From Dehalococcoidia bacterium (GTDB lineage: Bacteria; Chloroflexota; Dehalococcoidia; Lucifugimonadales; UBA2985): a DNA stretch of 64,000 nt. The notes under the pieces are model-generated. The model was given only the letters and a program-made list of their open reading frames with translations. It had not been told where the DNA came from and did not search any database. This document shows, piece by piece, positions 20,596 through 36,689 of this stretch (within the stretch, counting starts at the first letter, position 1; each line of letters starts with the position of its first letter). The position numbers were made by a program, and so were the translations under genes. Location: positions 2,208,819-2,272,818 of the forward strand of contig OZ253466.1 of NCBI GenBank assembly GCA_965261605.1, read 5' to 3'.

Positions 20596-21486
20596 CTAAA
20601 CTAGACCGACCGACACCCGCCGAGGCAGTGCCAGTGTTGCTGGTTGCCAACACAGGTAGGGACACCCTCGTTGGTGTAGATGCCGTCCTGTAGCCCGCTG
20701 TTCCGCGCCCGGCGTATGTGAATGACTGGTACTGCCCCTTTCGCAATTACATAGCGGTGATTTGCCTGAGAGTCGTAGCCTTTGTCGCCAATCACATACC
20801 CAGGCCGAAACCAAGGGTAGGCGTCGGCTGCTCCGTCTATGAGCGTGGGCAACTCCGAAACATCGTTGCGGCTGGCCGTCGTTAACAATACCCCAAAGAG
20901 GAATGCCATGCTCGGCGTCAGCGGCGACGTGAAGCTTGTAGCCGAAGCTCCACTCCGTCCCGTTCTTCGCACCCGGTCTGGTGCTGGTCTTGGCCGTCCA
21001 GCTGGCTTCGGGATCGCTGATCGGGTGCCTGTTGGGATTGGAGTAACTGCTGACGACGGTGCTGTCCACCGCGACCTTATCCCCCAAGTTGGGAAGGTAG
21101 TCGCGTAGCCTGTCGGTCGCGGTCGTGGTGGCGAGCTGCACTAGGTCTAAGTGGAGGCTAACCCTGGAGAAGAATCGGCTGAACGTAGACCTTTGAGGTA
21201 GCGCTTTGAAGCCACAGATGCGGCGAAGGCGCGGTTCTTCCTGTAGTCTGCGAATGAGGGCGCTGGTGCTGGGTATGTTCAGGATGTAACTCAGAAGAAC
21301 GGCCCGCCAGAGGGCTTCTACAGAGTAGCCAGACCGCCCCCTCCACCTGCTGCCGGTCCATCGGTACAGCCGGAGCCGCTCAAGCAAGGCCGTAGCATCC
21401 ACGCTGTTGAGTATTGCCTTGACTTCAGTGAGGCTAGGCCCCACTTGAGCCGATGATATGGTTGTCATAGAATGAGGTAACGCCAT
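20596..21486 (-). pseudogene. IS4/IS5-superfamily DDE transposase, frameshifted
   Basis: The N-terminal part (...VAVDSTVV...FGYKLHVAADAEHGIPL) is in one frame. The continuation (TASRNDVSELPTLIDGA...YVIGDKGYDS...) is in the overlapping ORF 20601-20972. Confidence 0.65.
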
Positions 21487-21701: not shown

Positions 21702-22301
21702 ATGAGTCTTCTTCTAGGATTGGCCGAAATCTACCAAGGCCTCGCGCGGGCGGGACATGGGGCGGGTGCCCGTTCCGGCGAATGGATGCTGCGGCTGGTC
21801 GAGAGCGGCGACTTGAGTGACGACGGCTGGCTGAAGCTTGATGGCCTGCGAGAGGTCGGGGTCGTTCAGGGCGTTCGCACGGAGCGCCACCTCCTCCGAC
21901 CATACGATGTGCTGGTAACGGCCCGCTCCGGGTCTATACATGCGGCACTGGTGCCACCAGAGGTGTCCAGGACCGTTGCCGGCGTTACGCTGTTGGTAGT
22001 TCGACCCAAGCAGCCGGAGTTGGGAATGGGCCATTGGCTCTGGTACTTCCTGACCTCCACTCATGGCCGTGCCCAGATAGAAAAGCGACTGACCGTGAGC
22101 TCCACGGTCACGTCGTTGTCTGCAAGCAGCCTTGGCGAGATCGAGATCCCCGTGGCATCACCTCGTGAGCTTAGTATTGTGGCCCGGCTTGTGGAGGCTT
22201 CCGAGGAGTCATACAATTCGGCTGTGGAGGCTGCGCGGATTCGCCGCGAAGCCATTCGAGACTCGGTCATACAAGAGATTGGCTACAGGTCGAAGTCGTA
22301 G
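21702..22301 (+). CDS. half-size Type I restriction specificity subunit (one TRD plus one conserved helix)
   Basis: 199 aa ending in an HsdS conserved-region-like segment (LGEIEIPVASPRELSIVARLVEASEESYNSAVEAARIRREAI). It sits 16 nt upstream of hsdM. Confidence 0.55.
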   Translation: MSLLLGLAEIYQGLARAGHGAGARSGEWMLRLVESGDLSDDGWLKLDGLREVGVVQGVRTERHLLRPYDVLVTARSGSIHAALVPPEVSRTVAGVTLLVVRPKQPELGMGHWLWYFLTSTHGRAQIEKRLTVSSTVTSLSASSLGEIEIPVASPRELSIVARLVEASEESYNSAVEAARIRREAIRDSVIQEIGYRSKS

Positions 22302-22317
22302 CCTGGAGGAGCATTCC

Positions 22318-23844
22318 ATGACAGTTTCCAGACAGGAGCTTGAGTCTAAGCTGTGGCAGGCCGCAGACATCCTGCGGGGCCAGATAGACTCGGCGGACTA
22401 CAAGAACTATATCTTTTCCATCCTCTTCCTGAAACGCCTCTCGGACCGCTTCAACGAGGAGGTGGAGCAGGCCGTGGCCTCTGGCATCTCGCATGCGGTG
22501 GCCATCGAAGACCGCGACGAGCACGAGTTCTTCGTGCCGGAGACCGCCAGGTGGACAGCGATTACAGGGGCATCAATGAACCTTGGGGAGACGCTCAACG
22601 TCGCTGGCCACGAAATCGAAGACCTCAACCCCAGGCTGGACGGCGTGCTGACCGGCACTAACTGGAACGACGAGAGCAAGCTGGGCAGCCCGGCAAACCG
22701 GGAGAGCATCATCCGAAGCCTGCTCAACCACTTCGGGGACATGGATTTGAGCGATGAGAACCTGCGGGAGGACGATGCAGGCGGCGGCAATGTGTTGGGC
22801 GACGCCTACGAGTACCTGATCAACCGGTTCGCGGACGATGCCGGCAAGAAGGGCGGCGAGTTCTATACGCCCCGCTCGGTGGTGCGCCTCATAGTTGAAC
22901 TGCTGGAGCCGTCGGAGGGGATGCGCATCTGCGACCCTACGGCAGGCTCCGGCGGTATGCTCATTTACACAGCCCAGTACGTTAGGGAGAAGGGCGGAGA
23001 CCTGCGCAACCTGGCGCTTCATGGGCAGGAGCGCAACCTTGGTACCCTGGCAATCGGCAAGCTCAACCTGCTGCTGCACGGGCTGCGATCCCCTCGGCTG
23101 GAGGCCGGAGACGTTATCGCCGAACCGGGCCTGGTTGACGATGCGGGACGACTTCTCTCCTACGACAGGGTCGTCGCCAATCCCCCCTTCAGCCTCAAGA
23201 GTTGGGGGCACGACTTCGCGCCCAACGACCCGCACCATCGCTTCGACCGCTACGGCGCCATCCCGCCCAAGACCAAGGGCGACCTGGCCTTCCTGCTTCA
23301 TATGCTGGCGGTGACCAATGCCCAGGGCATGGTGGGGGTGGTCATGCCCCACGGCGTCCTGTTCAGGGGCGGCGCGGAGGGCAAAATACGCAAGGGCATA
23401 GTTGAGGCAGACCTGTTTGAGGCGATCATCGGTCTGGCGCCCAACCTCTTCTTCGGTGCAAGCATACCCGTGGCCATCTGTGTGCTGAACAGAGCCAAGC
23501 CGCCGGAGCGCAGGGGCAAGGCGCTGTTCGTGGACGCATCTCAGCCCGGCAGCTTTCGACAAGGCAGGGCGCAGAACTTCATCGACCAGGAGCACATCGA
23601 CAGGATAGTGGAGGCGTACAGCGCATTTGAGGACGTGGACCGCTTCGCCCACGTCGCGGACCTGGAGGAGATACGGGGCAACGACTTCAACCTGAACATC
23701 AGCCGGTACGTGGACACCACTGAAGTCGTAGACGTAATGAGCGTGGAGGAGGCCCTCACCCAGCTGCGAGACGCGGAGCGGAGGCGGGACGAGGCCGTAT
23801 CGAAGATGGACGCGCTGCTAAGGGAGATGGGCTACGTCCGGTAG
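22318..23844 (+). CDS. hsdM: Type I R-M system N6-adenine DNA methyltransferase subunit
   Basis: HsdM N-terminal domain (LWQAADILRGQIDSADYKNYIFSILFLKRLSD), SAM motif (DPTAGSGGML), and catalytic NPPF (VVANPPFSL). The start was chosen at the ATG after the GGAGGA SD. Confidence 0.92.
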   Translation: MTVSRQELESKLWQAADILRGQIDSADYKNYIFSILFLKRLSDRFNEEVEQAVASGISHAVAIEDRDEHEFFVPETARWTAITGASMNLGETLNVAGHEIEDLNPRLDGVLTGTNWNDESKLGSPANRESIIRSLLNHFGDMDLSDENLREDDAGGGNVLGDAYEYLINRFADDAGKKGGEFYTPRSVVRLIVELLEPSEGMRICDPTAGSGGMLIYTAQYVREKGGDLRNLALHGQERNLGTLAIGKLNLLLHGLRSPRLEAGDVIAEPGLVDDAGRLLSYDRVVANPPFSLKSWGHDFAPNDPHHRFDRYGAIPPKTKGDLAFLLHMLAVTNAQGMVGVVMPHGVLFRGGAEGKIRKGIVEADLFEAIIGLAPNLFFGASIPVAICVLNRAKPPERRGKALFVDASQPGSFRQGRAQNFIDQEHIDRIVEAYSAFEDVDRFAHVADLEEIRGNDFNLNISRYVDTTEVVDVMSVEEALTQLRDAERRRDEAVSKMDALLREMGYVR

Positions 23845-23859
23845 GGGGAGGAGTGACCA

Positions 23860-24055
23860 ATGCCGACATTGTTGCGAGAGGGGTCCCTACCGGTTTTACT
23901 TCTATCTGGGCGACCGGCCGGAGCCGCCCCACGTGCACGTGCAGAGGGACAATCACATCGCCAAGTTCTGGCTGGACACGGTAGCGCTCCAGAGCAGCGG
24001 TGGATTGAGGCCCTATGAACTTAGACACGTCGAGCGTATCATACAGGAGCATTAA
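23860..24055 (+). pseudogene. DUF4160-family gene with a +1 frameshift after codon 7
   Basis: ATG-MPTLLRE is followed, in the +1 frame, by GPYRFYFYLGDRPEPPHVHVQRDNHIAKFWL..., which is the DUF4160 hallmark. The break is at the G4 run 23880-23883. No alternative start exists in the long frame. Confidence 0.5.
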
Positions 24056-24064
24056 GAATCATTC

Positions 24065-24421
24065 TTGAGGGAGTGGGTGTACGTTTCAACGACTGAAATC
24101 AACGTGCCGGAAGCCATGACGGTCTCTGTGACGGAGGATGTTCTTGCCGTCCAGCTGTCCGATGGGCGCGACATCTCTGTGCCGCTATCGTGGTACCCAC
24201 GGCTTGTGCACGCGACGACGGAGGAGCGAATCCACTGGGAACTCATCGGCGGCGGACAGGGCATCCACTGGCCCGACCTGGACGAAGACATCAGCGTCGA
24301 GATGCTGCTGGCGGGCCGCAAGTCCGGCGAGAGCCGGCGGTCCTTCAAGCAGTGGCTGGAAGCCAAACAGGCCGGGCTGGGCCTCACGCTGTATGAGCTT
24401 ACAGCCCATGAGCGGGAATGA
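24065..24421 (+). CDS. DUF2442-domain protein, the usual partner of DUF4160
   Basis: The sequence reads LAVQLSDGRDISVPLSWYPRLVHATTEERIHWELIGGGQGIHWPDLDEDISVEMLL. Confidence 0.65.
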   Translation: MREWVYVSTTEINVPEAMTVSVTEDVLAVQLSDGRDISVPLSWYPRLVHATTEERIHWELIGGGQGIHWPDLDEDISVEMLLAGRKSGESRRSFKQWLEAKQAGLGLTLYELTAHERE

Positions 24422-24465
24422 CAACAACAGGGCGATGATGTCCAGTAAGGCGTAGGACGTGAAAT

Positions 24466-24666
24466 ATGCCCAAGGTTAGAAACGCGATCCGGCTCATAGA
24501 GAGAGACGGCTGGAGGTTGGCTCGGACCCGGGGCAGCCACCGCCATTACCATCACCCCGACAAGCCCGGGACCGTTACCGTTCCGGGCCATCCGAGCGAT
24601 GATTTGCATCCAAAGACTTGGCGGGCTATTCTGAGACAAGCGGGAATTCAGGAGGGAGACCGATGA
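24466..24666 (+). CDS. hicA: HicA-family mRNA interferase toxin
   Basis: 66 aa; the sequence reads LIERDGWRLARTRGSHRHYHHPDKPGTVTVPGH. It overlaps hicB through ATGA. Confidence 0.8.
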   Translation: MPKVRNAIRLIERDGWRLARTRGSHRHYHHPDKPGTVTVPGHPSDDLHPKTWRAILRQAGIQEGDR

Positions 24667-25007
24667 AGCTGAAGTATGTGGTTGTCTACGAGAAGACCCC
24701 CAACAACTACTGCGCCTATCTGCCCGATTTGCCCGGCTGCATTAGTACGGGCAAGACCTGGGAAGACATACAAGGGATGATTCGAGAGGCTGTAGCCTTC
24801 CATATTGAAGCCATGATGGAACAGGGTGAACCGCTGCCGGAGAAGCCCATGTCCGTGGAAGAGGCTATGGCTCATCACTGCCAACCCCTGACCGAGCGCG
24901 AGAAGGAGACTCTGGCTGAGTACGGCGAAGCCGGCCCAACGATCTCGACCACCTTTCAGATGGTGGAGATTGAGGTTGCCGTCCCGGACGCTGCTAGGGC
25001 GGGGTGA
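24663..25007 (+). CDS. hicB: HicB-family antitoxin (UPF0150 fold)
   Basis: The sequence reads YVVVYEKTPNNYCAYLPDLPGCISTGKTWEDIQGMIREAVAFHIE. Its stop overlaps the hsdS start (GTGATGA). Confidence 0.8.
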   Translation: MKLKYVVVYEKTPNNYCAYLPDLPGCISTGKTWEDIQGMIREAVAFHIEAMMEQGEPLPEKPMSVEEAMAHHCQPLTEREKETLAEYGEAGPTISTTFQMVEIEVAVPDAARAG

Positions 25008-26278
25008 TGATCGGCAGGACGCACGTTCCCGATGGCTGGCAGGTGGCGCGCCTGGGGGATGTGGCGGAGGTCAATCCAAGACGGCCACGACTGAATGTCC
25101 CAGATGACACCCAGATAAGCTTCCTGCCAATGGCGGCAGTCGGTGAGCGTTTGTCTGGGGTCATTGAACGCCAGGACCGCCCCTATCGCGAAGTATCAAG
25201 TGGCTACACCTATTTTGAAGAGGGTGATGTCATATTCGCGAAGATTACGCCATGTCTCCAGAACGGCAAACACGCTCTTTTGGGTGATCTGCCCAATAGG
25301 TTCGGTTTCGGTTCTACTGAGTTCCATGTAGTGCGCGCTGATAGCCAAATGGATCCGCGACATCTGTTTCGCGTATTGACTCAGCCACAGAACATTCGAG
25401 AGTGCGTCAATAGCTTTACAGGAACTGCCGGACAACAGCGTGTGCAACCAGAAGTGCTGAAATCCCTTCCCATACTCCTGCCTCCCTTGCAGGAGCAGCG
25501 GGCAATTGCCGCCGTGCTGGACTCCATTGATGACGCCATTGAGCGCACGGAGGAGGTCATCGCAGCCACGGAGCGCCTGCGGGACGCCCTGCTCCACGAG
25601 CTTCTCACCCGCGGCGTCCCCGGCTGGCACAGCGAGTGGAAGGAAGCGCCGGGCATCGGCACAATCCCGGCGTGCTGGGATGTGGTGCGGCTGGGGGATG
25701 TGGTGGAGGTACGCAACGGGACCACGCCTTCTCGCGCTGAGACAAACTATTGGCAGGACGGAGACGTTCCGTTTATCAAGACAGGACAAGTGAACGATAC
25801 TCTTATTGAAGTACCCGATGAGTTCATTACATCTCAGGCAGTTGCTTCGGCAGGGGCTGTGGTTGTCCCAAGGGGATCTGTATTGATTGCTATGATTGGG
25901 CAGGGCAAGACTCGCGGGATGACTGCACAGCTTAAGATTGACGCAGCAATTAACCAGAATTTCGCTGCCGTGTTCGGAGCGGACGGAGATTTCAGCTTAG
26001 ATTTCTTCTTCACTTGGGCTAGGCAAAATTATTCTCACATTCGCGCTCTCGGGCAAGGGTCAAATCAGGACGCTCTGAATTGCGCCCTTATCGAAGGTAT
26101 GCGTGTGCCAAAACCAACTTTAGCTGAGCAGCAGACCATAGTGGCAGTGGCGAATAGTATGGATGACGCCATAGAGCAGGCGAGCCAGGAACGGGATGGG
26201 TTACAATTGCTGAAGGCGTCGGCCGCGGACGCGCTGCTCACGGGGCGCGTGCGGGTGCCTCTGGGAGGTGACTCATAG
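25004..26278 (+). CDS. hsdS: Type I R-M system specificity subunit (two TRDs)
   Basis: Two TRD plus conserved-region repeats (LPPLQEQRAIAAVLDSIDDAIERTEEVI and PKPTLAEQQTIVAVANSMDDAIEQASQE). The second TRD is visibly richer in AT. Confidence 0.88.
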   Translation: MMIGRTHVPDGWQVARLGDVAEVNPRRPRLNVPDDTQISFLPMAAVGERLSGVIERQDRPYREVSSGYTYFEEGDVIFAKITPCLQNGKHALLGDLPNRFGFGSTEFHVVRADSQMDPRHLFRVLTQPQNIRECVNSFTGTAGQQRVQPEVLKSLPILLPPLQEQRAIAAVLDSIDDAIERTEEVIAATERLRDALLHELLTRGVPGWHSEWKEAPGIGTIPACWDVVRLGDVVEVRNGTTPSRAETNYWQDGDVPFIKTGQVNDTLIEVPDEFITSQAVASAGAVVVPRGSVLIAMIGQGKTRGMTAQLKIDAAINQNFAAVFGADGDFSLDFFFTWARQNYSHIRALGQGSNQDALNCALIEGMRVPKPTLAEQQTIVAVANSMDDAIEQASQERDGLQLLKASAADALLTGRVRVPLGGDS

Positions 26279-27534
26279 TGCCTTACTATCATGTCCGCAT
26301 TACGTCAAAACCCGCTCTATCCAAGGTTGATGTAGAGCTTGACCTTAATCTGGAAAAGTTAACAAATCGTTTTATCGACCCTTACAAGAAAGGCACACCT
26401 ATAGTCATTGATGGACGAGCAATAGCTGCTGAAGATGTCGGGCGTATTCAGATAAACAAAACCGACCAAGACTCGGCATACCTTAACGCGACAATATTGG
26501 AGCAATATAGAGCGAGGAGAACCGTCGTGGGGGTTGATCACAGAGGTCGATTGTCTGCAGCTCTCCTCGCCAACAACGGAGAGGATGTGACAGACGAATT
26601 CATCACTGGCCCACCGGGTAGTGAATCCGAGTCTGCCTCTCACTCTTCACAGGAGGTTAGACCCGCAACAGGCACTCGAGATGTCTTTGTAGTTCATGGG
26701 AGGAATACTGAAGCCCGCGATGCTCTATTCGAGTTCCTGAGGGCAATTGACCTCCATCCGCTGGAGTGGTCCGAAGCTGTACGTGCCACAGGCAAGCCAT
26801 CACCTTATATTGGAGAGATTCTGGATGCTGCCTTTTCCCGGGCGCACGCGGTTGTAGTTCTTTTTACACCAGATGATGAGGCTAGACTGAGAGAACAGTT
26901 CCGAATTGACAGCGACCTTCTCCACGAGACTCAACTGACCGGTCAAGCCAGACCCAATGTCCTGTTTGAAGCCGGCATGGCAATGGCCAGAGACCAAGAC
27001 CGGACTGTTCTGGTAGAGCTTGGCAACTTGCGACCATTCAGCGATGTTGCCGGGCGTCATGCCATACATCTAGCCAACAATTCACAGCGGAGGCAAGAAC
27101 TAGCACAACGCTTAGAGGCGGCAGGCTGTCCAGTGAACTTGCAGGGAACTGACTGGCATACAGCGGGCGATTTTGAAGCCGCGCTTGCTTTGCTGACACA
27201 AGGGTTATCTGAGCCTATGGCCGTTGAGGAGCAGCCATCAAACAACGCCGCGTATCCGCAGCTATCGGATGACGCAAAAGAACTTCTCGTTGCAGCAACG
27301 AAGAGCTCAGCCAGAGAGATACTCAAAGCAGCGGCTTCTGGTGGTCTGACGATACAGGCAAATGGTAAGAGCTTTACCGAGAGGGGCAATGCAAAGTCAG
27401 AGGCTAGATGGGAGCAAGCCCTTGAGGACCTCTTGGACTACGGACTCGTTACAGACCCAAGAGGCAAAGGCCAAGTTTTTGAGGTCACACACAGAGGTTT
27501 TGAAGTTTCTGATGGGCTAGGGACTTCGGAATAA
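26278..27534 (+). CDS. three-domain protein with a central TIR-like nucleotide-binding domain (COG4271 / CAP12-PycTIR type) and unknown N- and C-terminal domains
   Basis: The GTG start overlaps the hsdS stop (TAGTG). The core reads DVFVVHGRNTEARDALFEFLRAIDLHPLEW...AHAVVVLFTPDDEARLR...ARPNVLFEAGMAMA...RTVLVELG. Confidence 0.7.
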   Translation: MPYYHVRITSKPALSKVDVELDLNLEKLTNRFIDPYKKGTPIVIDGRAIAAEDVGRIQINKTDQDSAYLNATILEQYRARRTVVGVDHRGRLSAALLANNGEDVTDEFITGPPGSESESASHSSQEVRPATGTRDVFVVHGRNTEARDALFEFLRAIDLHPLEWSEAVRATGKPSPYIGEILDAAFSRAHAVVVLFTPDDEARLREQFRIDSDLLHETQLTGQARPNVLFEAGMAMARDQDRTVLVELGNLRPFSDVAGRHAIHLANNSQRRQELAQRLEAAGCPVNLQGTDWHTAGDFEAALALLTQGLSEPMAVEEQPSNNAAYPQLSDDAKELLVAATKSSAREILKAAASGGLTIQANGKSFTERGNAKSEARWEQALEDLLDYGLVTDPRGKGQVFEVTHRGFEVSDGLGTSE

Positions 27535-27554
27535 CTCCATTCGCAGGGTGCAAA

Positions 27555-27617
27555 ATGCATACACCTAGTTCAACCAAGCTCAACGAGTACAACCACGCGG
27601 AGGAGCCGTGTCGATGA
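27555..27617 (+). pseudogene. hsdR 5' stub A (20 codons: MHTPSSTKLNEYNHAEEPCR-stop)
   Basis: The 35 nt at 27574-27608 are identical to 29695-29729 at the start of the full-length hsdR. Confidence 0.7.
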
Positions 27618-27904
27618 ACAGAGATGAAGCGCTTGACCTGCTCAGGACGCACAAGCCGGCGCTTGCGGAGCGCTTTGGCGTAACCGGTCTCGCTCTGTTC
27701 GGCTCTTTCGCCCGGGACCAGGCCACGGACAGCAGCGACGTCGACATCCTTGTCGAGTTTGTCGCACCCCCTGACTGGAAGGCCTATTTCGGGGTGGTGT
27801 CTTATTTGGAGGACATCCTTGGCAGGCCGGTGGATGTGGCCACTATTTCGGAAGTGCGGAAGGAGATACGCCCGTTCGTTGAGAGGGACGCTGTTCATGT
27901 TTGA
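27614..27904 (+). CDS. MNT-type nucleotidyltransferase (antitoxin of a HEPN/MNT module)
   Basis: The sequence reads LALFGSFARDQATDSSDVDILVEF (GSxxR...DxD). It overlaps the HEPN gene through ATGTTTGA. Confidence 0.8.
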   Translation: MNRDEALDLLRTHKPALAERFGVTGLALFGSFARDQATDSSDVDILVEFVAPPDWKAYFGVVSYLEDILGRPVDVATISEVRKEIRPFVERDAVHV

Positions 27905-28268
27905 TTCCCGAGAGCAGGAGCGCCCTTGGAGCTTCTACGTCCAGGACATGCTGGATTTTGCGGAAACGGTCTTGGGCTATACCTCTGGGCTGGACATGGA
28001 CGCATTTGTCGCCGACCGAAGAACCTATGACGCCACTCTGCGCAATATTCAACTGATCGGCGAGGCTGCCACTCATGTCCCTGCTGATGTCCGAGAAGCC
28101 TATACGTCCATTCCATGGCACGCAATGATAGGGACTCGAAACCGCCTGGCTCACGCCTACCTGCATATCAGCGACGCCATCCTTTGGTCGATAATCCAGG
28201 ACGCCATTCCAGGTCTGGTACCCCAGCTACGAAAGCTATTGGAAGACGTCCGACGGGAGTCGCCATGA
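27897..28268 (+). CDS. HEPN (DUF86) toxin
   Basis: It contains the Rx4H motif (GTRNRLAHAY). The start is taken at the ATG overlapping the MNT stop. Confidence 0.8.
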   Translation: MFDSREQERPWSFYVQDMLDFAETVLGYTSGLDMDAFVADRRTYDATLRNIQLIGEAATHVPADVREAYTSIPWHAMIGTRNRLAHAYLHISDAILWSIIQDAIPGLVPQLRKLLEDVRRESP

Positions 28269-28348
28269 CTTCCACCACCGCCAAGCTCAACGAGTACAAC
28301 CACGCTGAGGAACCGGCGCGCCGGCTGCTGGAGCAGCTACGTGCGTAG
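28265..28348 (+). pseudogene. hsdR 5' stub B (27 codons: MTSTTAKLNEYNHAEEPARRLLEQLRA-stop)
   Basis: 28265-28338 aligns with 29682-29752 (the hsdR start) with one 3-nt indel and a few mismatches. Its ATG overlaps the HEPN stop (ATGA). Confidence 0.8.
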
Positions 28349-28358
28349 TTGGCGGGGA

Positions 28359-28367
28359 TGGTATAAT
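28359..28367 (+). promoter_or_regulatory. extended -10 promoter element (TGgTATAAT) ahead of the 283-aa/PIN pair
   Basis: A TGG-TATAAT sequence lies immediately after stub B. A strong SD (GGAAGGAGGAGG) follows before the 28415 start. Confidence 0.4.
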
Positions 28368-28414
28368 TCTCTTCAGAGCAACGATCGCGCTCAGGCGTTG
28401 GGAAGGAGGAGGCG

Positions 28415-29266
28415 GTGATGACACAGCTATACCTGACCTTTGAAGGGCCGCGTATCAGTAAGCATGGGGTGCCGGTAGACGCCCTTGTCTCCGCGCTCCA
28501 AGGCATCCAGGACGCCCTACAGCTGATGGTCGAGCACCTGGCGAATTACCAACGCAAGCGCGGTAAACCTCCCAAGTGGATTAAGGACCAGAGCGTCTTG
28601 CAGCTTTCAGCCACTCGCCCGGGCTCTTTTGTGGCCGAGCTGACTCTGGACCCCGACGCTATAGACTCAGGCATATCGGAACGCTACGGAGAGCGGGCTC
28701 TCCACGCGTTCCAGCATTGGAGCGGGGGATACGGTTCTACCCTTCCCAAATCTGTAGTGGACAGGCTCTGGAGGATACCACCCAAAATCCCCGTAGACGT
28801 GCAACTTTGGCTGGGCGATGCTGAGGTTCTAAGAAGAGTGGTGATCGTACCCAGGAACGGATTCAGTGAGCGTGTTCCGTATCAAGCTCAAAAGACTGAA
28901 GAGGCCTTGGTATACGGCTGGCTTAAGATGGTCAACTGGGACAAGCGAACGGCCCAACTCCACCGCTACGGAGACCGTTATGTGCCGTTGCGGTTCGACC
29001 CCGATTTGGACGATGAGATGCGCCGTCTCGCAACTCAGTTCGTTGAGGTTAAAGGCGAGGGACGCTTTAACAACAACGAACAGTGGCAGTCGGTAAAGGT
29101 GGAAGAAATCACTGCTACGCGCTCCAGTAGTGAGCCCTTTGACATGGAGGCGTTTTTGAAGAATCCCAACCCTAAGATCTTCGATCCTGAGACCGTAGTC
29201 ACCGCGAGCGAACCCTTTGACGTGGACGAGTTCATACGCGTAGTCCGTGAAGGCCGAGACGCCTAA
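28415..29266 (+). CDS. 283-aa protein of unknown function, upstream partner of the PIN protein
   Basis: Good SD. The stop overlaps the PIN start (TAATG). The C-terminal tail carries a duplicated SEPFD(M/V)(E/D)(A/E)F motif. I recognise no domain. Confidence 0.5.
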   Translation: MMTQLYLTFEGPRISKHGVPVDALVSALQGIQDALQLMVEHLANYQRKRGKPPKWIKDQSVLQLSATRPGSFVAELTLDPDAIDSGISERYGERALHAFQHWSGGYGSTLPKSVVDRLWRIPPKIPVDVQLWLGDAEVLRRVVIVPRNGFSERVPYQAQKTEEALVYGWLKMVNWDKRTAQLHRYGDRYVPLRFDPDLDDEMRRLATQFVEVKGEGRFNNNEQWQSVKVEEITATRSSSEPFDMEAFLKNPNPKIFDPETVVTASEPFDVDEFIRVVREGRDA

Positions 29267-29685
29267 TGGTTACAGGTCTCCGGCTGGTAGTTGTGGACAC
29301 AAGTGTCGTATCCATCATTTTCAATCGAGCTCGAGATTGGCGGGCTCCGTTTTATGAGGGACACTTGGAAGGGCGGCAGGCTATTGTATCGTTCCAGACG
29401 CTGGAAGAGATACATTTCTGGCCTCTTGCCAATGACTGGGGTGAAAGACGACGAAACGAATTGATGCAGCACATGGCTCAATACGAGGTCATTTGGCCCG
29501 ACATAGCCTTAGTTAATATCTCTGCACAACTGCGTATAGAGCGAGTGCGGGCTGGACATAGTTTAAACACCGCCGACGCTTGGATTGCTGCAACCGCTCT
29601 TTATTTGGATTGCCCACTAGTAGCTGATGACGGAGATTTTGAAGGTGCCCCGGGGCTGGAACTCATACGAGCGCCACGACATTGA
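29266..29685 (+). CDS. PIN-domain ribonuclease (VapC-like toxin)
   Basis: Acidic PIN residues appear in VVVDTSV, TLEE, TADAWIAATA and VADDGDF. The stop overlaps the hsdR start (TTGA). Confidence 0.75.
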   Translation: MVTGLRLVVVDTSVVSIIFNRARDWRAPFYEGHLEGRQAIVSFQTLEEIHFWPLANDWGERRRNELMQHMAQYEVIWPDIALVNISAQLRIERVRAGHSLNTADAWIAATALYLDCPLVADDGDFEGAPGLELIRAPRH

Positions 29686-32600
29686 CTTCCACGGCCAAGC
29701 TCAACGAGTACAACCACGCGGAGGAGCCGGCGCGCCGGCTGCTGGAGCAGCTTGGCTGGACGTACGTTACGAGAGAGGCACTAGCATCTGAGCGGGGAGA
29801 CGAGCGGGAGGCGCTTCTAAAGGGCAGACTGAGGCGGGCGCTGCTGCGGCTCAACGAGTGGATGACGGAGGAGCAGGCGGAGCGGGCCATATTCAACCTG
29901 GAGCGTATCGAGGCGACTGGCATGGCCCGCAACCAGGCCGCCCACGAGTACCTCACCTACGGAATGCCCCTGACGGTGGACTCAACCCGGGGCCGGGAGA
30001 CGCGCACCGTCCGCTTCTTTGACTTCGACCATCCAGAAGGCGGCCTCAACGAGTTCGTGGTCACCACGCAATTCCGCGTCAGGCGCAGCAATGAGCGCGG
30101 CGGCCCGGAGGACGACGAGCGGATGGTCATCCCGGACCTTGTGCTATTCGTAAACGGCATCCCCCTGGTGGTGATGGAAGCCAAATCGCCGTCCCTAATG
30201 GACGTGTGGAAATCCCAGGCGGTACGGCAGCTGCGCCGCTACCAGGAGGCCGGGCCGGAGTGGCGCAGCTGCGGCGCTCCGGAGCTGTTCCACTACAATC
30301 TGATGTGCGTCGCGCACTGCGGGGCCGCTGCTGTGTACGCAGCACAGGGCGCGTCGGAGGATGCCTACTTCGAGTGGAAGTCCGTCCTGCCTTACTCGGA
30401 TGATGAGGTGAGGCAGCGCTTCGGCGTAGAGCCGCTGGGCCAGGCGCAGCTCATCGTAGGGCTGCTGTCCCCGTCGTCGCTGCTGGACGTGCTGCGGGAC
30501 TACGTCATATACGAGCCGGAGCGAGGACGCCTGACGAAGAAGCTGCCACGCTACCAGCAGTATCGCGCTGTGCGGTCGGCCGTGAAGCGCATCCTGTCGG
30601 GCGGCAAACCGGAAGAGCGCGGCGGTGTCGTGTGGCACACCCAGGGGTCCGGCAAGTCGCTGACCATGCTTTGGCTGGCGACCAAGGTGCGACGAGAGCC
30701 GCGGCTCGCCAACGCCACTATTGTCGTCGTCACAGACCGGACGCAGCTCGACAGGCAGATAGCCGCCACTTTCGAGCGTTGCGGCTTCCCCGCGCCTGAG
30801 CAAGCAAGTAGCACCCGAGACCTGCGGCGCCTGCTGACGACAGGCGTTGGCCGCACTGTGATGACCACCATACAGAAGTTCGAGGAGGCGTTGACAGCCA
30901 CAGGAGAAGACCTAGACGTGCTGAACCCATCCAATAACGTCATTGTGATGGTGGACGAGGCGCACCGCACCCAGTACGGGACCCTGGGAGCCCGAATGTC
31001 TCAGGGCCTGCCCAACGCTACCCTCATCGGCTTTACGGGCACTCCAATAGACAAGGACTTTCGCAGAAGCACCATGCGCCGTTTCGGACCTCTCATCGAC
31101 TCCTACACCATCCCCCAGTCCGTGGCCGATGGAGCGACCGTGCCAATACTCTACGAGGCGCGTCTGCCGGAACTGGCTATAGAAGGGCCAGAGACGCTGG
31201 ACAGGCTATACGAGGCCATGTTCGGAGACCAGCCGCCAGAGGTGCAGGAGCAGATACGACGCCGCTATGCCAACAAGGAGACGGTGGCCGAGGCGGAGCG
31301 TCGCATAGAGATGATTGCCCTGGACATCTCGGAGCACTTCAAGTCGAAGATACGTCCCAATGGGTTCAAGGCGCAGGTGGTCGCGCCCAGTCGCCGCGCC
31401 GCCCTGCGCTACGCCGAGTACCTGAACAACTTCGGCCTGCGGGCTTACCCGATAATCACTACGACTTCCGGCGACGGGCCGGAGTTCAGGATACCCCGGG
31501 AACTTGAACAAGAGCAGATTACAAGTGCCTTTGTAGACCCCAATGGGGAGCCGGAGGCGCTGGTAGTCGTGGACATGCTGCTAACGGGCTTCGACGCTCC
31601 CGTGGAGCAAGCGCTGTACCTGGACCGGGCCCTGAAAGAGCACGGCCTGCTCCAAGCCATTGCCCGGGTGAACCGCAGATTCTCCCACGAGTGGGACGGG
31701 GTCGTCACAGACAAGTCAGAGGGCATCGTGGTCGACTACCACGGCGTGTCTCGTGATCTGGAGAAAGCGCTATCCAGCTTTGATTGGCCTGATGTTCAGG
31801 ATTCTATGCGACGGATGGAGGAAGACCCGGTGCAGGTGGTAGAGTCGGCGGCGGTCCGGGCAGAGGCCCACTTCAAGGGACACAACCTGAGTGACACGTG
31901 GGACTGCGTAGGGGTCTTCGCGCCGGATGCCGATACGGAGGGCAACTTCAAGGCCGACCTGTTCGAGCGATTCAACGCGGACTACCGCCAACTCACACGG
32001 CTGATGGACCGCTTCCTTCCGGATCCGCGAGCTCTGCCTTACGCAGACCGGCTGGCGAGGCTCACTGAGATACGGGCCTACGTCCGCTCGCACTTCCTAC
32101 GAGAAGACGCCGCTACCAACTGGACAGAAATTGGAGCGAAGGTCAAGAAACTGGTGGACGAGCGCATCAGCGCTCGCGTGCGGGATCTGATGAGTCCAGT
32201 GTCAATACTCGACCAGGACTTTGACCAGAAGATAGCGGGTTTGCCCCACGACGAGGCGCGGGCTTCCGTTATGGAGCACTCCATACGAGCGCAGATACAT
32301 GAGAGGCTGGCAGACAACCCCGTGTATTTCGAGAGGCTTTCGGCGCAGCTTGAGCGCATCATCCAGGACCTTCGCAATCGTCTGATAGACTCCGCGGAGG
32401 CGTGCCTGCGAATGGAACCGATTCTGCGGCAAGCGCGAAGCGAGGCGGATGTCGCCGCCGAGCACGGCCTGTCGCCAGTGGCTTTCGCCATCCTAGAGCT
32501 GCTCAGCGGTGGGTCAGGGGAGGTCGGCTCCGCGGCTCGAGTGCGTGAGAGTCAATCCCCCTACCACGCAAATCTGGACGATGAGGCGAAGAACGTCGCC

Positions 32601-32789
32601 ATCAGGGTGGAATCAGTGGTAGCCCGTCACAGTAGCGTCGTGGATTGGCAATCGAACGAGGATATCAAGCGGCAGATGCGCCGGGACATAAAGCGCGAGC
32701 TGAGACCTACGGGTGAATATACCGAACAGCAACTGGATGAACTGGCGAGCCGGATCGTGGAGCTTGCCGGTCGCAGGAGCGGGCAGTGA
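29682..32789 (+). CDS. hsdR: Type I R-M system restriction (helicase-nuclease) subunit
   Basis: 1035 aa with the HsdR N-terminus (EEPARRLLEQLGW), nuclease region (DLVLFVNGIPLVVMEAK), Walker A (QGSGKSLT), DEAH (MVDEAHRTQ) and helicase motif VI (QAIARVNR). It has a TTG start. Confidence 0.92.
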   Translation: MTSTAKLNEYNHAEEPARRLLEQLGWTYVTREALASERGDEREALLKGRLRRALLRLNEWMTEEQAERAIFNLERIEATGMARNQAAHEYLTYGMPLTVDSTRGRETRTVRFFDFDHPEGGLNEFVVTTQFRVRRSNERGGPEDDERMVIPDLVLFVNGIPLVVMEAKSPSLMDVWKSQAVRQLRRYQEAGPEWRSCGAPELFHYNLMCVAHCGAAAVYAAQGASEDAYFEWKSVLPYSDDEVRQRFGVEPLGQAQLIVGLLSPSSLLDVLRDYVIYEPERGRLTKKLPRYQQYRAVRSAVKRILSGGKPEERGGVVWHTQGSGKSLTMLWLATKVRREPRLANATIVVVTDRTQLDRQIAATFERCGFPAPEQASSTRDLRRLLTTGVGRTVMTTIQKFEEALTATGEDLDVLNPSNNVIVMVDEAHRTQYGTLGARMSQGLPNATLIGFTGTPIDKDFRRSTMRRFGPLIDSYTIPQSVADGATVPILYEARLPELAIEGPETLDRLYEAMFGDQPPEVQEQIRRRYANKETVAEAERRIEMIALDISEHFKSKIRPNGFKAQVVAPSRRAALRYAEYLNNFGLRAYPIITTTSGDGPEFRIPRELEQEQITSAFVDPNGEPEALVVVDMLLTGFDAPVEQALYLDRALKEHGLLQAIARVNRRFSHEWDGVVTDKSEGIVVDYHGVSRDLEKALSSFDWPDVQDSMRRMEEDPVQVVESAAVRAEAHFKGHNLSDTWDCVGVFAPDADTEGNFKADLFERFNADYRQLTRLMDRFLPDPRALPYADRLARLTEIRAYVRSHFLREDAATNWTEIGAKVKKLVDERISARVRDLMSPVSILDQDFDQKIAGLPHDEARASVMEHSIRAQIHERLADNPVYFERLSAQLERIIQDLRNRLIDSAEACLRMEPILRQARSEADVAAEHGLSPVAFAILELLSGGSGEVGSAARVRESQSPYHANLDDEAKNVAIRVESVVARHSSVVDWQSNEDIKRQMRRDIKRELRPTGEYTEQQLDELASRIVELAGRRSGQ

Positions 32790-33514
32790 GTGAGAGCAGC
32801 GTCATCCGATTCGGCGACACGACCATTCTATACCAGGTCCGGCGCAGCGGGAGGCGCAAGAAGACCGTGCAAATCACAGTCGACGGTGGTGGTGTGCAGG
32901 TTGCCGCGCCAATGGCAACACCGGAGAGCGACTTACGGGCAATCGTAAGGAAGCGGGCGCCTTGGATTCTGAGCCATGCCTCAGAGGGTATGCTTGAAGC
33001 CGCGCACAAGCGTTTCGTCAGCGGCGAGACGCTTCCGTATCTGGGCCGCAACGTCCGCATTGTAGTCGAGTCCGGGAATGTGCGTTCTCCTGAGGTGCGC
33101 TTCGATCATTGGCGGTTTCGGATAGTTGTACCGGAGGGTATTGGCGATGTTGAACGCTTTGGCTCGGTACGTCGGGCCGTTATTGCGTGGTACCGTTTAC
33201 GTGCAAAGGAACGGCTGACGGCCAGCGTTGGGCGGTGGTGGCCACGACTGGGCAGTGGAGAAAACTCGCCTGTGCTCATCCGAGACCAGCGCCAACGTTG
33301 GGGAAGTTGCGCGCCTGATGGCACGCTGCGGTTCAACTGGCGCGCAGTGATGTTGAAGCCGGCACTTATCGAATACGTTGTCGTACACGAGTTGGCCCAC
33401 CTCACACACCGGAACCACTCCAGGGACTTTTGGGGATTAATGTCCAATGTACTGCCGGATGTGCAGAAAAGACGGAAGGCCCTGCGGGAGGCGGGGCGAG
33501 TATTGCCTTTGTGA
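32786..33514 (+). CDS. DUF45/YgjP-type (M48-like) zinc metallopeptidase commonly linked to hsdR
   Basis: It contains HExxH...H (VVHELAHLTHRNHSRDFW). Its GTG start overlaps the hsdR stop (GTGA). Confidence 0.8.
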   Translation: MSESSVIRFGDTTILYQVRRSGRRKKTVQITVDGGGVQVAAPMATPESDLRAIVRKRAPWILSHASEGMLEAAHKRFVSGETLPYLGRNVRIVVESGNVRSPEVRFDHWRFRIVVPEGIGDVERFGSVRRAVIAWYRLRAKERLTASVGRWWPRLGSGENSPVLIRDQRQRWGSCAPDGTLRFNWRAVMLKPALIEYVVVHELAHLTHRNHSRDFWGLMSNVLPDVQKRRKALREAGRVLPL

Positions 33515-33682: not shown

Positions 33683-34411
33683 GTGAAGCTGCTGCCGGGA
33701 GGATTTGCCCAATTGCTTCTCATCGTCCAGTGGTTCGTCGACTTGCACCTTGAACACATTGAAGAGGCTGCTCTCGGTACCCTAGCCCCCGAGACCGACG
33801 CACCCAGCGAGGAAGAAGCACTTGAGTGTCTGCTCTGGATCTTCGAGGAGAGGCAAGAGGAGTCCGATAGGGAGACCCTGGAGGCCTACATGGGAGCACG
33901 GGCCGGGGAGTGGTGGACGGATTACCCAGAATGTCAGCTTCTCACCACTCTAGTGCAGCGGGCCGACCGGCGGAAGAAGTGGCTTGGCACAAAGGATGAC
34001 AAACGACGCCCGTGGCATGAAGAGGGTCTCCGGATTGCCAGGCCGCTGCTGGCCGGCATCCCCGACAAGATCAACCTGGACCCCGATGGGGAGTACGAGG
34101 CCATGGCGAATGTCCTCGCAGCCCTCCTGTCGCCCCCCATGGGCGAATCCTCCCCCGAAACGCTGCAGAGGTACATTGAGCTCGCCAAGTTCCACCCGGT
34201 CTACAGCGACGCCCTCAAGCGCTACATTGAGGAGCTTGATGACCCCGTCAAGACCATCCCACGTCCGGAGATCAGGTGGCATCCGAGGGCTGCTGGCAGG
34301 CGTAGGGTGCGGCATTACTCCAAGACAAAAGTCCAGCCCCACCCCCCCCGTCAAACCGGCCCTCCTTCTGCGCAATCTCCACATCCAGTTTGTCATCGGG
34401 CTCCTGGATAG
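33683..34411 (+). CDS. hypothetical island protein; possibly one 33683-34589 gene split at a C8 tract
   Basis: The first roughly 200 codons look coding. Removing one C from the run 34342-34349 would fuse this frame to the coding-looking tail of ORF 33984-34589. Confidence 0.35.
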   Translation: MKLLPGGFAQLLLIVQWFVDLHLEHIEEAALGTLAPETDAPSEEEALECLLWIFEERQEESDRETLEAYMGARAGEWWTDYPECQLLTTLVQRADRRKKWLGTKDDKRRPWHEEGLRIARPLLAGIPDKINLDPDGEYEAMANVLAALLSPPMGESSPETLQRYIELAKFHPVYSDALKRYIEELDDPVKTIPRPEIRWHPRAAGRRRVRHYSKTKVQPHPPRQTGPPSAQSPHPVCHRAPG

Positions 34412-35037
34412 AGTTCAAGTACCGCCACGGGGCAAATACGTATCGGGTTGCCGCATCGTGGCATGTGTGCTGGGCCTTTCCGAATATACCGTGAAGGGCA
34501 TCTGGGAAATGCGCTTCACGCACGAGATTCGGAAGCATTCTGAGGCCATCGCCGAACGCATCGGGCTACTCGATACTACTGAGGCCTGAGCCTCCCTCAG
34601 GCTGCGGTCTCCCTCCCATTCCCTCTCCCTCTCTCCCTGCGAGAGCCTGCTCCACGCTACTCACGGTCGCCAAGGTGCCTCCCTATGTCCAAAGGGTGTC
34701 GGACACGACGAGACCTATGGTGAGGGCGGTTGCCCAGTGTATAGGGGCTTCCATCGATACAACGTATCGATAAGTCGCTACTAAATGCTCCACTTTCCGT
34801 CGCCGCGCCCGTCTACACTTAAAGTAAGTGAACCTGTTCTAGGAATGACCGGAACATCCCGCCGCGCGCAGGCGCAACGGCGGCAAGGCGGGGCATGAGA
34901 CGGCATGGACGCCGCTGGCGCCCGCTCATTCCGTCGGCGCCGTCGGTGAACTCAAAGACCAGGTGGAAGAGAATTGCGGCCGGACCGGCCGCAGCGACCA
35001 GGCAACATGAGTAAACTCAGGAGAAGGGAGCGCCAGG

Positions 35038-35262
35038 ATGAACCAAAGGCTGCTGCGTTGTCAACAAGTAGAGGAACTGACCGGACTGAGCCGCGCCTCG
35101 ATTTACAGGCTTATCTCAGAGGGAGGATTCCCGCGGCCCGTCAGGGTCAGCGCCACGGGCGTCAGGTGGAAGGCCAGCGACATCGCCGCCTGGATAGAGT
35201 CCCGGCCGCTGTCGACCAGCGAACTTGGCTCGGCCGCCGCCCCCTGGGTTCCGCCTGATTGA
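35038..35262 (+). CDS. alpA: AlpA-family excisionase / phage transcriptional regulator
   Basis: The sequence reads LLRCQQVEELTGLSRASIYRLISEGGFPRPVRVSATGVRWKASDIAAWIESR. Confidence 0.8.
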   Translation: MNQRLLRCQQVEELTGLSRASIYRLISEGGFPRPVRVSATGVRWKASDIAAWIESRPLSTSELGSAAAPWVPPD

Positions 35263-35272
35263 TGCTTCGCGG

Positions 35273-36481
35273 CTAAGTTGTGAGGTAGTCCGCCCACTGC
35301 TGCATGAGGGTCCGCCGTCGTACGAACAGGTCGGACCTGGCGTAAGCCTGCTCGACACTGCCCCCGAGCTGGTGTGCCAGGGCCGCCTCCGCGACAGCCC
35401 AGGGCGCGTCCGTCTGCTCCATTGACCATGTCCTGAAGGACGTCCTGAAGCCGTGCACAGTCGCCCGCTCCGCAAGGCCTGTTGCACGGAGAATCTTCGT
35501 CAGCGTCATGTCGCTCAGCATCCGGCCGCGGAGCAGGGGAGAGGGGAAGCACAGACCTGACCCACCCTGGAGTTCGCGGGCGAGTGTCAATACCCCCACT
35601 GCCTGATTGCTGAGCGGTACCCGGTGCTCTTCGCCTGCCTTCATACGGGAGCCCGGTATCGTCCACGTAGCGCCTTCCATATCGATCTCATTCCAAGTTG
35701 CGCCCCTTGCCTCACCGGAGCGCGCCGCCGTGAAGACCAGGAACGCTAGGCAGAGCTTCGAAGCGGGTGAGGTCTGGGACGCATCGACGGTCCTGAGGGC
35801 CGCGCCCACTTCCTCGTAGGGTAGCGCCCTGAGATGCGCCTTGACCTTGGGCATCGACGGCAGGGCCCCGTCTATGGCTTCCCCTGCCGGGTTGCCCTCG
35901 ACGAGCTCGTTGGCCATGGCCCACCTGAATATCGTTCGCATCCTCTGCCTGACTCGCCGGGCGGTCTCGGGGCGCGTCGACCATATGGGTGTAAGGACTG
36001 CCAGCAGGTCGCTGCGGCTTATGGTGTCGACAGGCTTGTTGCCGATCTTTGGGAAGGCGTGTCGTTCGAGGGTCTGGATCCACCCTGACGTGTGGCTCCC
36101 GTTGCGCCAGCGAGGCTTGTTGGCTTCGTGCACAGCATAGGCAGTCTCTCGGAAGGTGGGCATCGCCGGCCTGTGCTTCTCCGCAACTGGGTCCCTCCCA
36201 TTGCCAACCGCCTCGCGGTTGTAGGATGCACGCTTCCTAGCCTGGGCTAGCGACACAGACGGATACCCTCCCAGGCCTATATCGCGCCGCTTGCCGTCGA
36301 TGGTTATCCGCTGCACCCAGCTCTTGCCGCCCGACTTGCTTATGAAGAGATGCAGGCCGTCGCCGTCCGTGTGGCGGCCCGGCTCACTGAGCGCCTTCAC
36401 TTCTGTTGCCGAAAACTTCACGCCAGGTGGCCTCCTCAACTTGTTACCACGCAAATTACCACAATAGAGGCGAGATAGCAA
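35273..36481 (-). CDS. int: P4-type tyrosine integrase (DUF4102 arm-binding N-terminus)
   Basis: The N-terminus reads DGDGLHLFISKSGGKSWVQRITIDGKRRDIGLGGYPSVSLAQARKRA. Catalytic residues appear in TAARSGE, TVHGFRTSFRTW, ALAH and YARSD. The true start may be the GTG at 36421. Confidence 0.9.
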   Translation of the reverse strand: MLSRLYCGNLRGNKLRRPPGVKFSATEVKALSEPGRHTDGDGLHLFISKSGGKSWVQRITIDGKRRDIGLGGYPSVSLAQARKRASYNREAVGNGRDPVAEKHRPAMPTFRETAYAVHEANKPRWRNGSHTSGWIQTLERHAFPKIGNKPVDTISRSDLLAVLTPIWSTRPETARRVRQRMRTIFRWAMANELVEGNPAGEAIDGALPSMPKVKAHLRALPYEEVGAALRTVDASQTSPASKLCLAFLVFTAARSGEARGATWNEIDMEGATWTIPGSRMKAGEEHRVPLSNQAVGVLTLARELQGGSGLCFPSPLLRGRMLSDMTLTKILRATGLAERATVHGFRTSFRTWSMEQTDAPWAVAEAALAHQLGGSVEQAYARSDLFVRRRTLMQQWADYLTT

Positions 36482-36616
36482 GGGATTGCGGGGGAGTGCC
36501 GGGGAGGCCTCGACCTGACTAATCAGGCCTTAATGATACCTGCTACAGCTACGGTAAGGGGCCTAAATGAGACACACTGGGACGGCTATGGAACGCATAG
36601 GAAGAGGGGAGAGAAG

Positions 36617-36689
36617 TGGAGCTGAGGGGAGTCGAACCCCTGACCTCCTCCGTGCAAAGGAGGCGCTCTCCCAACTGAGCTACAGCCCC
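36617..36689 (-). tRNA. tRNA-Ala (anticodon UGC), CCA not encoded
   Basis: Reverse complement is GGGGCTGTAGCTCAGTTGGGAGAGCGCCTCCTTTGCACGGAGGAGGTCAGGGGTTCGACTCCCCTCAGCTCCA. It folds as a cloverleaf with the G3:U70 Ala identity pair. Confidence 0.92.

Follow-up and report, generated by a model that had tools for sequence, protein, structure and literature searches.

A TIR-domain gene between hsdS and hsdR in a Dehalococcoidia type I restriction-modification operon: a candidate abortive-infection NADase

The TIR gene and its operon

The 64,000-nt stretch of contig OZ253466.1 from a Dehalococcoidia bacterium (the window; all coordinates are window positions, and L and P numbers are labels of loci and proteins) carries a type I restriction-modification (R-M) operon in which an open reading frame (ORF) of 418 aa lies between hsdS and hsdR. 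The encoded protein has a central TIR domain of the CAP12/PycTIR type between an N-terminal and a C-terminal domain, and is, in our judgement and with some reservation, probably a self-contained single-chain abortive-infection NADase that is carried as cargo in the R-M operon. The original prediction, made on the window sequence, had described this ORF as beginning with a GTG that overlaps the hsdS stop, within a type I R-M operon that has no cyclase, SIR2 or ThsA partner. All of this is borne out. The hsdM, hsdS and hsdR reading frames are all intact and lie on one strand, and a Pfam scan of ORFs of at least 80 aa from 21702 to 33514 finds no cyclase, SIR2, ThsA, SLOG or Macro domain in the operon; it recovers hsdM, DUF2442, HicB, hsdS, MNT, HepT, PIN and YgjP, together with two ORFs that match no family. 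Read along the + strand, the order is a half-HsdS-like ORF, hsdM, a DUF4160-like remnant, DUF2442, HicA, HicB and hsdS, followed by the TIR ORF, MNT, HepT, an unknown 283-aa protein, a PIN protein, hsdR and a YgjP-like peptidase (Table 1). The hsdR gene is 94–98% identical to the L081 and L082 genes annotated HSDR_N, ResIII and T1RH-like_C.

The stop codon of hsdS (TAG, 26276–26278) and the GTG start (26278–26280) have one G in common, and a GGAGG Shine-Dalgarno sequence (26264–26268) is found 9 nt 5' of the GTG. This start is well supported, since homologues have their first residue at the matching position (M.YYHVRI), and those of L081–L083 likewise use GTG. In related operons the TIR gene follows hsdS at a spacing between −56 and +144 nt, in most of them ≤20 nt. 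A scan for promoters and terminators inside the operon, based on a sigma-70 consensus that may not apply to this phylum, returned signals at chance level, which is consistent with a single operon. Directly 5' of hsdM lies an ORF of 199 aa (21702–22301) with no Pfam match that is 50–74% identical in related operons of the R-M lineage and 96% identical in L082; judged by eye, it resembles an HsdS-like protein with a single target-recognition domain (TRD).

Composition marks the TIR gene as of foreign origin and a later acquisition. Its G+C content is 51.5%, with 46.5% at third codon positions (GC3), compared with 62.4% and 82.1% for hsdM and 62.5% and 76.5% for hsdR; counted per 60 nt, G+C ranges from 22 to 35 in the TIR gene (mean 31.1), the mean for hsdM being 37.4. 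The hand counts from which a late arrival of the gene had been proposed were representative, but the accompanying proposal that TRD2 of hsdS arrived with it did not hold. TRD2 is intermediate in composition (55.2% G+C, GC3 57.1%), and between L081 and the window the TIR proteins are 86% identical but the HsdS proteins only 35%.

The TIR domain and its flanking domains

Residues 136–265 match PF10137 (CAP12-PCTIR_TIR) with an E-value of 3.4e-27 and 95.3 bits against a gathering cut-off of 24.7, the alignment spanning profile positions 2–117 of 119. The TIR-like domain of the original prediction is thereby confirmed, the residues quoted for it are correct, and the glutamate of its FEAG motif is E231. 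The TIR sequence of SfSTING, an exact match to PDB 7UN8, was aligned to the family profile by hhalign in local mode (a run with -glob gave a meaningless alignment and was replaced) and by MAFFT. In this alignment F137, W164, R225, N227, E231 and D256 correspond to F6, W33, R78, N80, E84 and D110 of SfSTING, and all six are invariant in a 47-sequence family alignment. E84 of SfSTING, on helix alpha-C, is the catalytic residue, roles have been described for the residues of its NAD+ pocket, and D110 acts in trans, being inserted into its partner's active site within the filament (PMC9402430). The mapping of the predicted active site rests on a weak hhalign alignment and a strong Pfam match. The TIR core is under strong purifying selection, with a ratio of non-synonymous to synonymous substitution rates (dN/dS) of 0.06–0.09. 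Given the PF10137 identity, the invariant pocket residues and the purifying selection, the protein is most likely a functional NADase in which TIR–TIR packing completes the active site.

Structural modelling points in the same direction for the central domain. A full-length AlphaFold (AF2) model built from 47 homologues (mean pLDDT 78, pTM 0.43) matches TIR-STING (9lmq and 6wt7), PdTIR, BtTir and AbTir in Foldseek at a probability of ~1. The E-values are poor (2e-3 and weaker) because the model is multi-domain, and FprA flavodoxin-like matches rank alongside. Sequence searches of PDB chains with the full-length profile, the TIR segment and the N-terminal profile gave nothing significant (a CASK PDZ match at E 0.31 was discarded as evidence), a scan of the protein against NCBIfam returned no family, and PF08937 (ThsB_TIR) is absent among its Pfam matches down to E 1. 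In a public ENA contig of 10,224 nt the same gene is split by a frameshift directly after NVLFE, the motif that contains the predicted catalytic glutamate, into P0056 (290 aa) and P0294 (123 aa); either an assembly error or natural inactivation of the allele could account for this.

Nothing had been recognised by eye in the outer domains, and residues 1–130 and 300–418 indeed have no Pfam match even at E 10. The N-terminal domain, modelled alone, is nonetheless a confident fold (pLDDT 92, pTM 0.82). Foldseek finds no fold match for it in the PDB (best E 1.5) and only weak matches in BFVD to uncharacterised phage proteins of ~60–145 aa (E ≥ 0.02).

An exhaustive profile search finds the N-terminal domain in 1060 cluster representatives at E ≤ 1e-3. 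Its partners were surveyed by a Pfam scan of 98 of the best matches, each at least 200 aa long. In 49 of these proteins the domain is followed by PF10137, in 11 by TIR_2 and in 6 by TIR; a DpnII-MboI-type restriction endonuclease follows in 4 and Hypoth_Ymh in 3, and HNH, AAA, PNP_UDP_1, alpha/beta-hydrolase, AbiJ_NTD4, DUF4145 and nSTAND3 are single-case partners. Of ten examples, nine have a Pfam-annotated partner, and in all nine the domain is N-terminal to it. The range of its fusion partners, with other TIR clades and with restriction endonuclease, HEPN-like, HNH and hydrolase domains, suggests that it is probably a sensor or regulatory module shared among interchangeable toxic effectors.

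Short proteins from word-indexed searches with the N- and C-terminal profiles were considered as true standalone domains, and those checked were rejected: P0134 and P0125 are truncated by insertion sequence elements, and P0056 and P0294 are the halves of the frameshifted copy described above. A distant standalone homologue of the N-terminal domain is P0152 (167 aa) of a Lysobacteraceae locus (L104:2092-5504, NWQQ01000021.1). It overlaps the end of a 712-aa protein with a faint QueC match, and the pair comes after a 262-aa ORF and adjoins a serine recombinase; this locus may be a different defence-like module with the same N-terminal domain.

The C-terminal domain is possibly winged-helix-like. 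Its profile gives weak but consistent winged helix-turn-helix matches to RosR and HxlR (E 0.035–0.045), which span the recognition helix and the wing. Not all family members have this domain, as many relatives match residues 1 to ~303 only (N-terminal and TIR parts). Amino-acid identities for the N-terminal, TIR and C-terminal parts are 82, 98 and 69% against L081 (649-1905) and 39, 90 and 94% against L082 (8001-9203), a mosaic in which the outer domains have been exchanged independently around a conserved TIR core. Against L081 the N-terminal domain has a dN/dS of 0.49, the TIR core one of 0.06. The pattern indicates recombination of the outer domains and possibly diversifying selection on them.

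The protein belongs to a large family. At E ≤ 1e-3, 4924 proteins match the ORF, and at least 120 of the homologues listed are 52–86% identical and nearly all full-length with the same three domains. The original prediction had called the module undescribed, which does not stand: five PADLOC PDC-S35 hidden Markov models (HMMs) match it (E 7e-21 to 9e-14), the best aligning residues 16–288 to profile positions 19–274 of 278 (92% of the profile), with membership judged here by HMM E-value and profile coverage rather than by PADLOC's own thresholds. The PDCs are 145 'phage defence candidates' found through 'guilt-by-embedding', their genes sitting inside BREX, DISARM or type I R-M systems (Payne, Hughes, Fineran, Jackson 2024, bioRxiv 10.1101/2024.01.29.577857), and others of them (S05, S70, M05) have since been validated (PMC12881386). 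Like PDC-S35, the window gene encodes the N-terminal and TIR parts, and like the founding members of the PDCs it is embedded on the same strand in a methylase-based defence system; it differs from PDC-S35 in adding a C-terminal domain of ~95 aa that the profiles (231–278 positions) do not cover. By sequence the gene is a PDC-S35 family member with an added C-terminal domain and an effector of a well-known type. The family is already catalogued as a phage-defence candidate. The statement that no described system has this arrangement accordingly fails with respect to the catalogue and holds with respect to mechanism.

Table 1. Features of the R-M operon and its surroundings in the window
Feature	Position	Strand	Basis
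Three-domain ORF (N-terminal, CAP12/PycTIR-type TIR, C-terminal)	26278..27534	+	418 aa, ORF list
GGAGG Shine-Dalgarno and TAGTG stop/start overlap with hsdS (26276–26280)	26264..26280	+	Read from sequence
N-terminal domain, residues 1–118, beta-beta-alpha-beta-beta-beta-alpha	26278..26631	+	AF2 model
TIR NADase domain (predicted) with conserved helical extension, residues 134–310	26677..27207	+	PF10137, Foldseek, SfSTING alignment
GAA codon of E231, predicted catalytic glutamate in NVLFEAGM	26968..26970	+	Aligned to SfSTING E84
C-terminal domain, residues 326–418, possibly winged-helix-like	27253..27531	+	pLDDT ~90 in full-length model
hsdM	22321..23844	+	PF02384 (E 2e-95) and PF12161
Frameshifted DUF4160-like remnant	23860..24055	+	hsdM–hsdS slot
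DUF2442	24065..24421	+	hsdM–hsdS slot, Pfam
HicA	24466..24666	+	hsdM–hsdS slot
HicB, end overlapping hsdS start	24663..25007	+	hsdM–hsdS slot
hsdS, two TRDs	25004..26278	+	PF01420 (E 5e-33)
hsdR 5' remnant 1 (MHTPSSTKLNEYNHAEEPCR, then stop), directly after TIR gene, overlapping MNT start	27555..27617	+	Direct repeats D1, DNA alignment, tblastn
MNT-HepT toxin-antitoxin cassette	27608..28268	+	PF01909, PF01934; PADLOC PDC-S09 and PDC-M05A models
hsdR 5' remnant 2 (MTSTTAKLNEYNHAEEPARRLLEQL...), ATG overlapping HepT TGA stop	28265..28339	+	Direct repeats, DNA alignment, tblastn
Cassette of unknown 283-aa protein and PIN-domain protein	28415..29685	+	PF01850 for PIN protein
hsdR, 1035 aa, intact ORF	29682..32789	+	ORF list; identity to L081/L082 genes
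YgjP-like metallopeptidase, conserved last gene of the R-M lineage	32786..33514	+	PF01863 (E 7e-53)
Tyrosine integrase (35273–36481) beside tRNA-Ala (36616–36689)	35273..36689	-	Identity to L082 gene; tRNA

Genomic contexts and cargo slots

A scan of one genome per species gave 415 relatives, and the contexts of the best 80 were searched with the proteins of the window operon. These loci come mostly from metagenome-assembled genomes of Dehalococcoidia/Chloroflexota, and also from Actinomycetota, Acidobacteriota, Spirochaetia, Verrucomicrobiota and Bathyarchaeota. The same R-M operon (hsdM-...-hsdS-TIR-...-hsdR-YgjP) encloses the gene in 18 of the 80, remnants of it are present in 5, and 57 have no detectable type I R-M component of the operon, proportions that are not an unbiased census in loci chosen as most similar to an R-M-embedded query. 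Across the 18 embedded loci HsdM is 76–88% identical, which indicates a single R-M lineage, and members of the same TIR family occur with very different HsdS proteins (35–41% identity). When the loci are clustered by TIR-core identity, embedded and non-embedded copies are intermixed. At the loci of non-embedded copies, the neighbours mix defence with housekeeping genes: methylases (Eco57I-like type IIG ones and one with DUF1156, Hma-type), ABC-ATPase defence genes and toxin-antitoxin genes (MazF, Phd, PIN and HicB among them) on the one hand, and hydantoinase, Cpn60, GcvP and aconitase on the other. The three closest metagenomic relatives, L081–L083, have the arrangement of the window.

The position between hsdS and hsdR is a variable slot. 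R-M operons of the same lineage were recovered from metagenomes by the HsdR N-terminus, regardless of cargo, and the slot holds the TIR gene in L084 and L085, a DUF3644 gene matching PDC-S19 in L090 and L092, MNT-HepT in L088 and unknown ORFs in L086 and L091; it is empty in L093 and L099. In L095 it holds a TIR_2 and ThsB_TIR pair followed by the cassette of unknown and PIN proteins. Together with its low GC3, this variability shows that the TIR gene is interchangeable cargo and not an integral subunit. The pair of L095 consists of two small adjacent TIR genes (L095:4261-5273; PADLOC ThsB and PDC-M50B-like) with no recognisable Thoeris effector beside them.

Other cargo shares the operon. The 283-aa protein (28415–29266) has no Pfam family and only faint PADLOC PDC-M32A matches; it is always paired with the downstream PIN gene, the pair being present also in L019, L026, L029, L032 and L095, and the two may form an uncharacterised PIN-associated two-gene module. 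A second cargo slot lies between hsdM and hsdS (23860–25007), and its content varies among related operons.

A duplication footprint marks the start of hsdR. Cargo cassettes of the window and of 11 related loci (L002, L010, L012, L020, L021, L029, L033, L081–L083 and L095) are followed by a copy of the first ~16–50 codons of hsdR. The window has three direct copies: a remnant of 20 codons after the TIR gene, a second one after HepT, and the true hsdR start (29682–29752). There are three copies each in L002, L010 and L021 and two in L020, L029, L033 and L095; L081–L083 each have a remnant after the TIR gene in addition to the true start, and in L012 the remnant lies upstream of the TIR gene. 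The left junction of MNT-HepT falls at hsdR codon 16–18 in the five loci where it is readable, with the sequence (junction marked by a slash) HAEEP/CR in the window and L081–L083, HAEEP/MNR in L002 and HAGEA/MNR in L021. The repeats suggest one ancestral insertion of a cassette into the hsdR 5' end, with later gain and loss by homologous recombination, which would be possible with any related operon since the cassette is flanked by hsdR 5' homology. The catalogue of embedded genes leaves the mechanism of embedding open (10.1101/2024.01.29.577857).

The whole R-M operon is on an integrative island, as the integrase abuts a tRNA-Ala gene. The integrase is 93% identical to a Phage_integrase-annotated gene of L082, and L081 and L082 have an AlpA-like gene and an integrase downstream. 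No distal att repeat of the tRNA-Ala island was found. An unknown 242-aa ORF lies between the R-M operon and the integrase (region 33683–36689), and a broken transposase-like ORF is located upstream of the operon (20596–21486).

Proposed function and its rivals

We propose that the TIR domain is the effector and that it probably hydrolyses NAD+ after the protein has oligomerised, a second chain likely completing the active site in trans, in the manner of TIR-STING. An infection cue would be sensed by the N-terminal and/or C-terminal domain, with the N-terminal domain as probable sensor or regulator and the optional C-terminal domain as a possible contributor to sensing or assembly. The gene would be horizontally acquired cargo of the variable hsdS–hsdR slot of a Dehalococcoidia type I R-M lineage on a tRNA-Ala island. 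It is co-transcribed with the R-M genes, with probable translational coupling, and would gain co-regulation and co-transfer from them, and the protein would provide a presumed anti-phage function without need of the R-M complex.

This proposal draws on several known systems. CAP12/TIR-STING (SfSTING), PycTIR and TIR-SAVED, effectors of the cyclic-oligonucleotide-based anti-phage signalling system (CBASS) and of Pycsar, have TIR domains of the same family, PF10137; this membership and the conserved NAD+ pocket, including the catalytic glutamate and the trans-acting aspartate, predict a NADase activated by oligomerisation. Unlike CBASS and Pycsar, the window operon has no CD-NTase or pyrimidine cyclase, and the protein has no STING, SAVED or cNMP-binding domain. 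Known cyclic nucleotide pathways are therefore not its trigger. PrrC of EcoprrI (hsdM-hsdS-prrC-hsdR) is likewise a toxic effector nested in a co-oriented type I R-M operon and offers a conceptual precedent for a back-up defence; PrrC, however, combines an ABC-ATPase with an anticodon nuclease, whereas the effector here is a TIR domain.

Several observations weigh against the proposed NADase cargo. PDC-S35 is a computational candidate that is not named in the literature searched. Searches of Pfam, the PDB and BFVD give no informative relative of the N-terminal domain by sequence or structure, and by sequence the protein resembles solved PF10137 structures only weakly (hhalign E 0.0025–0.008). 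To the sampling bias of the 80 loci is added that ~30 of them adjoin methylase-based systems of some kind, an adjacency that could be more than hitch-hiking. The tight stop/start overlap with hsdS would fit a functional partnership too, and the same is true of L001, where the TIR gene overlaps hsdR by 4 nt.

Such a partnership could resemble that of PrrC: the TIR protein would be held inactive on HsdMSR and released to deplete NAD+ as a back-up once the R-M enzyme has been disabled by a phage anti-restriction protein (Ocr-, ArdA- or Stp-like). The position between hsdS and hsdR with its overlap and Shine-Dalgarno sequence, the recurrence of this placement in the 18 embedded loci and the three closest relatives, the hsdR overlap in L001, the Eco57I-like type IIG and DUF1156 (Hma-type) methylases beside other homologues, and the precedent of PrrC, EcoprrI and Stp (10.1101/2024.01.29.577857) are all consistent with it. 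A variant in which the N- and/or C-terminal domain monitors HsdMSR or a bound DNA mimic could also call on the winged-helix-like domain, which could bind DNA or a DNA mimic. However, PrrC is reported to be almost exclusively R-M-embedded (10.1101/2024.01.29.577857), whereas this TIR family is mostly found elsewhere, with no R-M component at 57 of the 80 loci. Operons of the same lineage have other cargo or none in the slot, the family pairs with divergent HsdS proteins, embedded and non-embedded copies do not separate in the TIR-core clustering, and the two fusions of the N-terminal domain to other effectors that were inspected for context both lie outside R-M operons. A back-up responding to the state of the R-M complex was the hypothesis of the original prediction; the evidence leans against it, and we consider it unlikely, its domain-monitoring variant equally so. 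If it were true, the repeated presence of the family next to type I, type IIG and Hma-type methylases would mean that its members keep watch over methylase-based immunity in general.

Less probable still is that the protein is an addiction module, serving mainly as a toxin-like stabiliser of the R-M operon or the island and not as a dedicated phage sensor. The operon is loaded with toxin-antitoxin modules (HicAB at 24466–25007, MNT-HepT and a PIN-domain gene), all of it on an integrative island, and MazF, Phd, PIN and HicB are found near non-embedded homologues. Yet there is no cognate antitoxin gene, a single chain with an N-terminal domain common to many effectors is typical of sensor-effector immune proteins, and those PF10137-family TIR domains that have been characterised are defence effectors activated by a ligand (PMC9402430).

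We give very little weight to a signal-producing role as in Thoeris, where the TIR protein ThsB makes the signal and an effector encoded elsewhere would respond to an ADP-ribose-derived second messenger. TIR domains can be signal synthases (10.64898/2025.12.03.692087), ThsB is likewise a TIR-fold protein in a defence context, and a ThsB_TIR and TIR_2 pair fills the same slot in L095. Against this, ThsB belongs to the PF08937 clade, which the window protein does not match; the characterised members of its own clade, PF10137, are NAD+-depleting effectors, and TIRs that stand alone or in CBASS or Pycsar contexts have been set aside as likely effectors of this kind (10.64898/2025.12.03.692087). 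The operon moreover has no ThsA-type partner, nor a SLOG, Macro or other Thoeris-type effector. It is just as improbable that the TIR/flavodoxin-like fold serves as a DNPH1/MilB-type nucleotide or nucleoside hydrolase or as a non-catalytic adaptor, for although DNPH1 (8rpt, 8qhq) and flavodoxin-like folds are among the weak Foldseek matches and sequence similarity to solved TIR NADases is weak, the PF10137 match is far above its cut-off and the family shows no variation at the positions that align with the NAD+ pocket of SfSTING, the trans-acting aspartate among them.

If the NADase reading is true, the gene would add one more single-chain TIR NADase defence protein, from the barely studied Dehalococcoidia/Chloroflexota, and the PDC-S35 candidate would gain a concrete anatomy, in which E231 is the catalytic residue, D256 acts in trans and the N-terminal domain is sensor-like. 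Of possibly greater value than the TIR gene itself are two by-products. The N-terminal domain is widespread and without Pfam annotation, and its position directly upstream of at least 10 different effector-type domains makes it a promising candidate for a new immune domain of prokaryotes with a sensing or regulatory role. The hsdR 5' footprint suggests that R-M operons can take up embedded defence genes through homologous recombination at the hsdR 5' end.

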